30,935 nt of DNA, from the IMG/VR virus record IMGVR_UViG_2690316316_000011, positions 1 to 30,935 of that record; one strand, 5' to 3'. Shown in pieces: positions 17,030-18,826 of the stretch (positions within the stretch are counted from its first letter, which is position 1; each line of letters starts with the position of its first letter). Position numbers and translations under genes: made by a program. The notes under the pieces are model-generated. The model worked only from the letters and a program-made list of their open reading frames with translations. It searched no databases and was not told the DNA's origin. The stretch is from a virus (Duplodnaviria > Heunggongvirae > Uroviricota > Caudoviricetes).

Positions 17030-18826
17030 TTATGCCTTGATAGTTAGCTGTATGAATGCGTTATCATGAGCAATTGCAACATCGGTATAATCCCAAACGC
17101 GGTATACAATTGTTGCAGAAGAACGATAAGTGGTATCGTCAAAATCAACTTCCTGACCTTCCCAATTAGCGATAATGACATTATCAAACTGACCAATCAA
17201 AATAGTATCGTCTTCAATAAATTCAGAAACGACTACCTGTACTTCGTCATTTAGCCACATTGCATCTGCACGGTATCCCTCAACCATTGCTACAGCAGCA
17301 GTATTATCGAGTACCTTAGTCTGACGCATTTTGGATAGCATTTTACTGTTCATCACAGCTTTGCAACGACGAACATCAACATTAGCGGAACCCAATTGAG
17401 CTACAGCCCCCTGTACATCAGCCTGGGTTAATACACCAGCATCAGCAGATTCAACAATTGGAGCAGCCGCAGCAATCTTATCGAATACGGATTGTTCAAG
17501 ACCCTGAGCGGCATAGCGGAGTAACTCTGCCTGTACGAATGTCTCAATGTTTGGAGCCGTTAGGATCGCCGTCTTACTGACAGGGATAGCACCAGCAAAT
17601 GTTTTTGGTGTAAGTACGACTTTTGAGAAGGAAGCGATAGAATCGACAACGGTTTCACCTTCTGCATAGAATTTGAATACTGGTGCGACACCATCAGCTT
17701 TAGGGATCGCAAGATTGCCACGACCAGCAAGGCCACTGTACACAGTCGGGTTAAGTTCACCGAGTGAGGATAGTTTTAGTAGTTCTGGAATGTACTGATC
17801 CTGTAGATCTTCGACGACCAGACCCGTAGCAGTACTGGTATTGGTTGAAGGTACTACGGCACGTACAAAACCATTTAGGCCACGTTCATATGCTTCAAGT
17901 GCTGATTTATCACCAGTTTTGATAGCACGCACCATATCCTTAATTAGATTTTTTTCCATTGTTTTGATTTCCTTATCATGAACAGGATTTTTGTTATCAT
18001 TTAAATGACGTTTAAATTCGGAGACGGTAATTCCTTTACCAATGGCTTCCGACACATCAATATTTAGTACTTTACCGATGGAAGTTAATTCGCGTTGGCG
18101 TTCTAATTCTGCTTCGGTTAATTCATTACTATTTACTGTTTCTTCTACAGTTGTGAGTTTATTTAGTAGTTCTGGACGATTAGCGATAATGGCTAACAGT
18201 TCTTCATCACTGTGTTCTTTTGGTGTTTCAACTTCGACTTCCTGAGTAATTTCCGTCTCAACAGGTTTGTTCTGTTCTTCCATGAGTTCTTCCTTTTGAA
18301 TTGTTTCACTGTTTGTATTTAGTGATTCAGGTTCAATAGGCTTTTCATTTATTTCGAGAGAACGACCAATTCCCGCATTAGTATCAGCGGGTACAGTAAC
18401 TAAACTGATCTCATAGATTTCAAATTGCGTAACATAGATGTTATTACCCTCAATTCGATAATCATTAATGTTGTAGCCAATACTGATATGCTGGAGGATT
18501 CCTTCCTGGATCATTTCCCACATATCACTCGCTGTAGTACTAATCTTTAAAGTCGCTCTGCCTACCCGGTCTGTATCCATTTGAGCCGAAACAACAGCAC
18601 CAATAAGATCATCACGATTATGGTTATAAAGTACTGCACCATTTTTATTCAGGCGGCGTAGGTCTGCATTTTCTGAGCCACATAAAAGAATTTCGTTATA
18701 GATTTCGCCATTAATTTCACGTTCTACTGGCATTTCTGAGCAAAAGGCGACATCGATAGTTCGCGATTCTGTATTAATCGCCTGTAGGGGTATCGTTAGC
18801 TCCCTCTTCTTGTTCCTGATTTCCAT
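17030..18826 (-). CDS. prohead protease - scaffold-like linker - major capsid protein fusion (HK97 fold)
   Basis: 598-aa ORF; N-terminal ~165 aa carry HK97-type prohead protease signatures ([28 protein letters not shown]); acidic coiled-coil linker (~170-300); C-terminal ~300 aa resemble HK97-like capsid protein. Confidence 0.75.

Follow-up and report, generated by a model that had tools for sequence, protein, structure and literature searches.

A protease–capsid fusion gene of a siphovirus-type prophage with putative internal translation starts

Conserved putative internal start codons in the fusion gene

The window analysed here, a stretch of 30,935 nucleotides (positions 1 to 30,935 of the IMG/VR virus record IMGVR_UViG_2690316316_000011, Caudoviricetes), contains on its minus strand a single open reading frame (ORF) of 598 amino acids (17030..18826; 66.1 kDa, ATG start) in which a prohead serine protease, a linker, a scaffold-like segment and a capsid protein are joined. 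This triple fusion is not itself new, and the gene is a divergent new member of a known and widespread family. Comparison with its homologues reveals two in-frame ATG codons, Met182 (M182), shortly behind the protease domain, and Met290 (M290), each conserved together with a ribosome-binding site (RBS) motif of its own, which suggests to us a nested set of products of 598, 417 and 309 amino acids, all in one frame. The explanation of the gene that we consider probable is that products initiated at Met1 (M1), M182 and M290 would co-assemble and would then be trimmed.

Homologous DNA from genomes, IMG/VR and metagenomes was reduced to 42 representatives, 32–90% identical to one another, and each column of their alignment was scored for an ATG with a Shine-Dalgarno (SD)-like motif 4–11 nt upstream. 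Only three columns combine a conserved ATG with such a motif, namely M1, M182 and M290. At M290 both ATG and motif are present in 42 of 42 sequences; M1 has ATG in 37 of 42 (34 with the motif) and M182 in 36 of 41 (30 with the motif), whereas the next best column reaches 20 of 42 and six, respectively. As a background, SD-like motifs precede 15 of 437 (3.4%) other in-frame ATGs and 26 of 1343 (1.9%) out-of-frame ATGs. In the window, the first putative internal start (18281..18295, minus strand) comprises AAGGA at 18295..18291, a spacing of 7 nt and the ATG of Met182 at 18283..18281, and would give rise to a product of 417 amino acids (45.6 kDa) without the protease; the second (17957..17975, minus strand) comprises TAAGGA at 17975..17970, a spacing of 10 nt and the ATG of Met290 at 17959..17957, and would yield 309 amino acids (33.4 kDa). 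TAAGGA followed after 6–8 nt by ATG is a recurrent form of RBS among other genes of the window. Eight in-frame ATGs were compared, and at the three sites anti-SD pairing is strongest (-5.6 to -7.4 kcal/mol) and local RNA structure weakest.

The M290 motif, AAGGA at 7 or 10 nt from the ATG, derives from the invariant Lys285 and a following Glu or Asp. The Lys285 codon is AAG in 42 of 42 representatives, as compared to 27% AAG and 73% AAA in the genes overall and 5–26% AAG in four other conserved lysine columns. Likewise, Val284 is encoded by GTT in 22 of 22 cases, against a usage of 33%, and the complete TAAGGA string occurs in 37 of 42 sequences. The choice of AAG at Lys285 and of GTT at Val284 points to selection acting on the RNA rather than on the protein. 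Upstream of M182 the residues vary (KEE, ERE, EGE, EER, KDQ, SEGE and others), and a GG core is kept 5–8 nt from the ATG.

Also inspected were ten distant fused homologues (23–30% identity), whose phages or prophages have alpha-, gamma- or deltaproteobacterial hosts. Nine of the ten homologues (ECO1230-10, VP882, phiHAP-1, R4C, DCP80 and four prophages in metagenome-assembled genomes (MAGs), FoX3 being the exception) contain a Met after a canonical SD motif (GGAGGA, GAGGA, AAGGA, AGGAG or GGAG), which in eight of the nine follows directly after the protease domain. Judged from this distribution, the M182-type start appears to be old. In an exhaustive search with the segment M182–598 as query, 98 of the top 150 representative clusters were fused, and 30 were stand-alone proteins of 356–454 amino acids with N-termini at approximately the M182-equivalent position; two of these stand-alone relatives were inspected, and each is encoded beside a separate S78 protease gene. 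Since the stand-alone relatives start at the M182 equivalent, the putative 417-aa product would be the counterpart of an ordinary capsid precursor with a delta domain. A search for sigma-70-like promoters on the coding strand within the gene found none, their count being below the shuffled expectation, so that any shorter products would have to arise from translation and not from transcription.

The earlier note had supposed that protease and capsid are made in a strict 1:1 stoichiometry. This is probably wrong, as the internal ATGs M182 and M290 and their RBS motifs are conserved at the nucleotide level, which argues against a fixed ratio and points to protease-free and scaffold-free products. 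The opposing explanation, a single polyprotein, holds that only the 598-aa product is made, that every subunit carries protease and scaffold and is trimmed after assembly, and that the internal ATG and SD motifs are by-products or relics. It agrees with the maintenance of one uninterrupted frame across more than 300 homologues and with published accounts, which treat such genes as coding for a single propeptide (PMC10892653, PMC7302621). Moreover, several points weigh against internal initiation as such. The case for it is drawn from comparative sequence analysis, for the fusion gene and its relatives alike, and acidic, lysine-rich sequence easily makes SD-like strings: Lys-Glu/Asp and Glu-Glu dipeptides readily yield AAGGA or GAGGA, so that the M182 signal may be partly compositional. 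At the M182 column, ATG is missing from five of 41 representatives. A post-protease start could also be what is left, in slow decay, of an ancestral capsid gene that was separate, and only the enterobacterial subfamily has the M290 start. The capsid precursor devoid of most of the scaffold-like segment would, finally, be a putative form with a hypothetical role. By-products or relics, however, do not readily account for a codon choice at Lys285 and Val284 that runs against the genes' own usage, for the invariance of Met290, for an SD core before M182 that survives amino-acid turnover, or for SD-preceded internal Met codons in nearly all distant homologues against a background of 2–3% at other ATGs. 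We therefore regard a single polyprotein as a serious but rather unlikely alternative.

Internal SD-like sequences might also act on elongating ribosomes, for example by causing pauses for folding of the protease or the scaffold, and create no new N-termini. Both motifs are located at domain boundaries, in regions which AlphaFold predicts to be disordered, and conservation at the nucleotide level would fit an RNA role other than initiation, too. A pause, however, would not depend on a canonically spaced ATG, whereas that at position 290 is invariant and that at 182 largely kept; motif and spacing moreover match the recurrent RBS form of the window, and the stand-alone relatives begin at the M182 equivalent. 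A role confined to elongation is accordingly improbable, and internal initiation remains the interpretation that we prefer.

A reading of the SD motif at 17970-17975 as part of a -1 frameshift signal, with a slippery A AAA AAT after Met290, was rejected; the heptamer is not conserved among the representatives. A scan for synonymous-codon conservation gave peaks at codons 167–172 (~18311..18328), 230–236 (~18119..18139) and 319–325. At the first two, identical-codon usage among relatives reaches values up to ~2.0 versus a mean of 1.2; the first peak is located 30–45 nt upstream of the Met182 start. The peaks at codons 167–172 and 230–236 are possibly RNA-level elements, but the scan is confounded by relatedness in variable regions and was not used as evidence.

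Proposed expression and assembly

In the nested expression that we propose, initiation at M1, probably coupled to translation of the portal gene, would produce the 598-aa protease-bearing subunit; the SD motif of M1 has a conserved but long spacing of 11 nt, and the full-length product would represent a minority of the subunits. Initiation at M182 would give the 417-aa form with linker, scaffold-like segment and capsid domain, and, in the enterobacterial subfamily, initiation at M290 the 309-aa form, in which only a short propeptide precedes the capsid domain. As all products would contain the capsid domain, they could co-assemble into one procapsid, and the protease would be carried inside the shell as a covalent part of a minority of shell subunits. 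It would then trim everything N-terminal of residues ~322–335, leaving an HK97-like mature capsid protein of ~29.6 kDa. The stoichiometry would be set by the strength of initiation, as in lambda C/Nu3/E or herpesvirus UL26/UL26.5, instead of being fixed at 1:1. Extended to the family as a whole, this would mean that the fusion genes are three-tier nested genes (two-tier in the distant members), giving rise to protease-free M182 and scaffold-poor M290 precursors; to this generalization we incline slightly.

In lambda C/Nu3, in UL26/UL26.5 of HSV-1 (herpes simplex virus 1) and in gp17/gp17.5 of the archaeal virus HFTV1, an in-frame internal start leads to an abundant, N-terminally truncated product which shares its C-terminus with a rarer, protease-bearing form; for HFTV1, the internal start was shown by ribosome profiling (bioRxiv 10.64898/2026.09.13.751334). 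The fusion gene resembles these systems in its conserved in-frame internal start codons with their own RBS motifs, which are known here from the sequence. It differs in that the shared part of the known systems is scaffold only, the capsid protein being encoded separately, whereas in the fusion gene the capsid domain would belong to the shared part as well and there would be two internal starts. No description of internal starts in protease–capsid fusions was found in the searchable literature.

If the proposed expression is correct, one ORF would reproduce the protease : scaffold : coat hierarchy of lambda C, Nu3 and E, and the puzzle of 415 proteases per T=7 shell, a seemingly wasteful and crowded arrangement, would be resolved. 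The nested protease–scaffold strategy of lambda, herpesviruses and HFTV1 would be extended to the capsid protein as the shared module. In that case, multiple products of such genes should be considered in genome annotation and in the engineering of capsids, for example when cargo is to be loaded in an encapsulin-like way via a minority subunit.

Domain organization and predicted protease

Pfam and PHROG matches bear out the earlier description of a single 598-aa ORF with an S78 protease, a linker and scaffold-like segment, and an HK97-fold capsid domain. Peptidase_S78 matches residues 61–154 (E 3.5e-11, 44 bits versus a cut-off of 21) and Phage_capsid (PF05065) matches residues 336–595 (E 3.3e-15, 56.7 bits versus a cut-off of 24.2). 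PHROG 617 ('major head protein') is co-linear with the protein over residues 4–595 and profile positions 7–622 of 626 (E 8e-82), and PHROG 4523, named 'major head and protease protein', matches residues 3–275. On the minus strand of the window, the prohead serine protease domain (Peptidase_S78; residues ~16–155) is encoded by 18362..18781, the linker (residues 156–240) by 18107..18361, the scaffold-like or delta-like segment (residues 241–322) by 17861..18106, and the capsid domain (residues ~323–598, with a predicted N-terminal boundary) by 17030..17860 including the stop codon. The acidic character that had been ascribed to the linker was confirmed (24 Asp or Glu in 85 residues, isoelectric point (pI) 4.1); its length varies among relatives, and it is predicted to be mostly disordered. 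The segment that follows is basic (pI 9.35), helical and conserved, with the motif ERxRELTSIGxVLNIDVSxAIxKGISVSDFKR. In sequence it does not resemble the HK97 delta domain; a scaffold role is predicted from its helices and its conservation.

A full-length AlphaFold model, built from a 25-sequence alignment, shows a beta-rich domain corresponding to the protease (residues 16–142), a disordered stretch (143–206), helices at 207–224, 238–277 (predicted local distance difference test (pLDDT) score ~80) and 294–311 (low confidence), a second disordered stretch (309–338) and an HK97 fold (339–598). Top Foldseek matches of the capsid part are roseophage R4C (8GTA; E 1.6e-14) and HK97 (1OHG/2FS3; E ~5e-13). 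Residues 1–160, modelled alone with a pLDDT of 86.5, match T4 gp21 (5JBL) and the proteases of Epstein-Barr virus, human cytomegalovirus, pseudorabies virus and Kaposi's sarcoma-associated herpesvirus with probabilities of 0.85–0.97, template modelling (TM) scores of ~0.4–0.46 and weak E-values of ~0.02. A phmmer search against PDB sequences for identification of the protease had returned only spurious matches to designed beta-trefoil proteins, and the fold search was used instead.

His69 (in an NHN/DHD motif), Ser115 (in an ISIGY motif) and Glu139 are invariant in 33 family members and 12 distant homologues, from 98% down to ~25% identity. His69 and Ser115 are candidate catalytic residues of the predicted protease; we take them to be the catalytic His and Ser from general knowledge of the family, not from a residue-level alignment to HK97 gp4. 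It is conceivable that the N-terminal domain has a protease fold that has degenerated, is inactive and is kept only as scaffold or spacer, with cleavage by a host or other enzyme or no cleavage at all. Protease activity is indeed predicted from sequence and fold, the Pfam match covers 61–154 only, and the E-values against solved proteases are weak. The invariance of the three residues over this range of identities, the failure to detect any other protease in the module, and the deposited R4C virion chain, which consists of the C-terminal capsid domain only, speak against an inactive fold, which we consider very improbable.

As the earlier note had stated, no separate protease or scaffold gene was found: neither family was detected in the other 37 ORFs of the window by PHROGs, nor in the six flanking ORFs by Pfam as well. 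The 107-aa and 130-aa ORFs directly 3' of the fusion gene had no family match, and a novel scaffold may be encoded by one of them.

Compared to HK97 gp4/gp5, the protease family (Peptidase_S78) and the capsid fold are the same. The HK97 protease cleaves off a scaffold-like N-terminal part, as is proposed for the fusion protein, and the putative M182 product (417 aa) would be the equivalent of gp5 with its delta domain. In contrast to the fusion gene, in which the protease is continuous with the capsid subunit, HK97 has two separate genes, and its protease is targeted by a short C-terminal tail.

Processing and mature capsid protein

The only sequence-level PDB match to the fusion protein is 8GTA_A, the 268-residue capsid chain of the R4C virion; gp006 of R4C builds a T=7 shell (PMC10276861). 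The chain comprises exactly residues 362–629 of the 629 encoded by the R4C gene, and in the fusion protein residues ~333–598 align to it. The mature HK97 chain starts at Ser104, after Lys103. In the family alignment, a conserved basic residue, which is Arg322 in the fusion protein, is located 10–14 residues upstream of a G-x-L-V motif of the N-arm. We place the cleavage site between residues 312 and 335; by analogy with K103|S104 of HK97, R322|A323 is a candidate, and a mature protein starting at Ala323 is predicted to comprise 276 amino acids (29.6 kDa). The earlier proposal of processing near residue 300 thus holds as regards removal of the N-terminal part, for which 8GTA_A of R4C provides support, but the position was set somewhat early. 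Some caution is due here: HK97 and a homologue of 25% identity are the basis of the cleavage position, the deposited chain of 8GTA may represent the modelled residues rather than the true N-terminus, and the R4C paper is silent on processing (PMC10276861).

Homologues and previously described fusions

A search of 5.8 billion proteins retrieved 344 homologues, and nearly all of the 120 listed are 590–655 amino acids long and have both Pfam domains. They are mostly from prophages of Enterobacteriaceae (Pseudescherichia, Enterobacter, E. coli, Kosakonia, Citrobacter, Buttiauxella), the nearest genome match being a Buttiauxella sp. MAG (L003; 97% identity). Distant relatives are present in only 8 of 5426 complete E. 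coli genomes, and a megablast search of 12 kb of the window against a phage collection gave no match. Among cultured phages, tblastn detected full-length relatives in VP882, phiHAP-1, ECO1230-10/ep3, RcRhea/RcCronus, R4C and FoX1-5 (24–30% identity).

It might be suspected that separate protease and capsid genes were joined, in this window only, through a frameshift introduced in sequencing or assembly or through loss of a stop codon; HK97-like phages normally have separate genes, and a relative on one short metagenomic contig is divided between two frames. The same fused frame, however, recurs in isolate genomes, cultured phages, IMG/VR and metagenomes, homologues of similar length with both domains are single coding sequences in complete E. 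coli genomes, and PHROG 617 spans the full length. The check for a frameshift that had been called for hence gave a clear answer, and the comparative data already refute an artefact, which we regard as virtually excluded. The split contig (L139; Logan SRR31240105, 1.5 kb) has a protease–scaffold part ending in a stop codon and, in another frame, a 309-aa capsid ORF with an overlap of 53 nt; it is either a genuine split version or the result of an assembly indel. Three homologues (L082-L084) seemed to lack the protease, as tblastn matched only residues 238–598, but on inspection were found to have the same architecture with a longer acidic linker. In the unfused relatives L136 and L137 (metagenome contigs), a capsid gene (415–417 aa) is followed by an S78 protease gene (170–178 aa) and, in L137, by the portal gene; location of the protease gene downstream of the capsid gene is the reverse of the HK97 order.

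Full-length homologues in named genera are those of Hapunavirus (VP882 gp07, phiHAP-1 ORF5), Jilinvirus (ECO1230-10 gp27), Foxunavirus (FoX3 gp06, Murka) and Cronusvirus (R4C gp006, RcCronus). With VP882, ECO1230-10, phiHAP-1, R4C and FoX, tblastn identity is 24–26% at 95–99% coverage, and the cultured-phage genes share the succession of S78 protease, linker, helical segment and HK97 fold. They also share a gene context of TerL, an adaptor of ~176 amino acids, a lambda-type portal and the fusion gene, an order common to VP882, phiHAP-1, ECO1230-10, FoX3 and R4C. The difference from the cultured phages is that identity to any of them is only ~25–30%. Compared with the distant members, the enterobacterial subfamily has a shorter region from scaffold segment to capsid and, in M290, an extra invariant ATG with an RBS. 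In the record of Halomonas phage phiHAP-1 (L132, NC_010342; 3055..4863), the 'major head protein' is annotated to begin within the protease domain, at a position aligned to 'SEMPVER' of the fusion gene; its N-terminus has probably been truncated by annotation.

Self-processing of a fused precursor, as envisaged earlier, agrees with published interpretations of homologues, but the implied novelty does not hold, since the triple fusion is already in print. The gene of Foxunavirus Murka has been described as a single propeptide of protease, scaffold and capsid protein (PMC10892653), a 'protease-scaffold-capsid fusion' is a common feature of small actinobacteriophages (PMC7302621), and further mention of the triple fusion is found in PMC8601537. 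The one-gene concept is shared with the 'major capsid and protease fusion' of actinobacteriophages (clusters EE, EL, AN, AX, FE, CW, DM and RRH1; PMC7302621); in contrast, these infect Gram-positive hosts, and searches with the fusion gene detected no sequence similarity to them. Gene product 5 of Pseudomonas phage MD8 likewise unites protease, scaffold and capsid protein; it is encoded by a single gene, of 693 amino acids, which follows that of the portal (PMC8508860). Its protease is ClpP/S49-like, of the lambda gpC type, and not S78, indicating that MD8 gp5 is an independent fusion. In MD8 gene 5 (L140, NC_031091), a single sequence, Met220 is preceded by AGGAG at 9 nt just after the protease domain. 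Xanthomonas phage Xp10 is not an example of such a fusion; it has separate p08 (ClpP protease) and p09 (capsid) genes (PMC2248197). A fitting annotation for the present gene should be 'major capsid and prohead protease fusion protein'.

Start codon and overlap with the portal gene

The fusion gene overlaps the 505-aa lambda-family portal gene (18774..20291, minus strand; Phage_portal_2, E 2e-58) by 53 nt, and the earlier note had advised checking this overlap for an alternative start. M1 is the correct start: residues 1–31 are conserved, with Arg8 invariant, the next Met (position 32) is not conserved, and an in-frame stop codon is located 1–3 codons upstream of the M1-equivalent Met in several homologues. 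In 39 of 42 representatives the portal stop codon lies 47–62 nt inside the fusion gene, and a complete E. coli genome has a single 613-aa coding sequence, annotated by the Prokaryotic Genome Annotation Pipeline (PGAP), with the same 53-nt overlap. As the overlap is conserved, it does not reflect a mis-called start; it probably serves translational coupling. The RBS motif of M1, AAGGAAG (18836..18842, minus strand), is located inside the 3' end of the portal gene; 11 nt separate its AAGGA core from the ATG (18826..18824), and AAGGA or AGGA is found at the same spacing in most of the 42 representatives.

The portal ATG (20291; region 20276..20306, minus strand) is without a recognisable SD motif (anti-SD pairing of -2.0 kcal/mol), and the portal gene shares 16 nt with the 176-aa head-tail joining gene upstream of it. 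Given the portal start without SD motif and this 16-nt overlap, the genes of TerL, adaptor, portal and fusion protein look like a translationally coupled chain.

Gene neighbourhood

The gene order around the fusion gene is that of a siphovirus structural module. Its 5' part consists of TerS, a gpA-type TerL, the 176-aa head-tail joining protein, the portal and the fusion gene; two small unmatched ORFs, tail tube, chaperone, tape measure, distal tail protein and central fibre follow on the 3' side. We take the fusion gene to be the one that codes for the head shell of a temperate siphovirus-type prophage.

About 80 nt past the stop codon of the capsid gene, and within the 107-aa ORF (16694..17017), there is a perfect-looking stem-loop of 17 bp followed by a T-rich tail (16908..16948, minus strand), which may act behind the capsid gene as a partial terminator or to stabilise the mRNA. 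The 911-aa ORF at 13551..16286 (minus strand) opens with a tail-tube domain (major tail protein, phrog_158), which shares 36% identity (E 2e-21) with the 167-aa major tail protein encoded next to it (13032..13535, minus strand) and is followed by tail-fibre repeats and a C-terminal Peptidase_S74 intramolecular chaperone; the ORF is a tube-domain/fibre fusion just upstream of the tube gene. Two ORFs resembling HNH/homing endonucleases are located at 2515..2967 (minus strand), near the lysis/tail end, and at 30209..30709 (minus strand), beyond the packaging genes.

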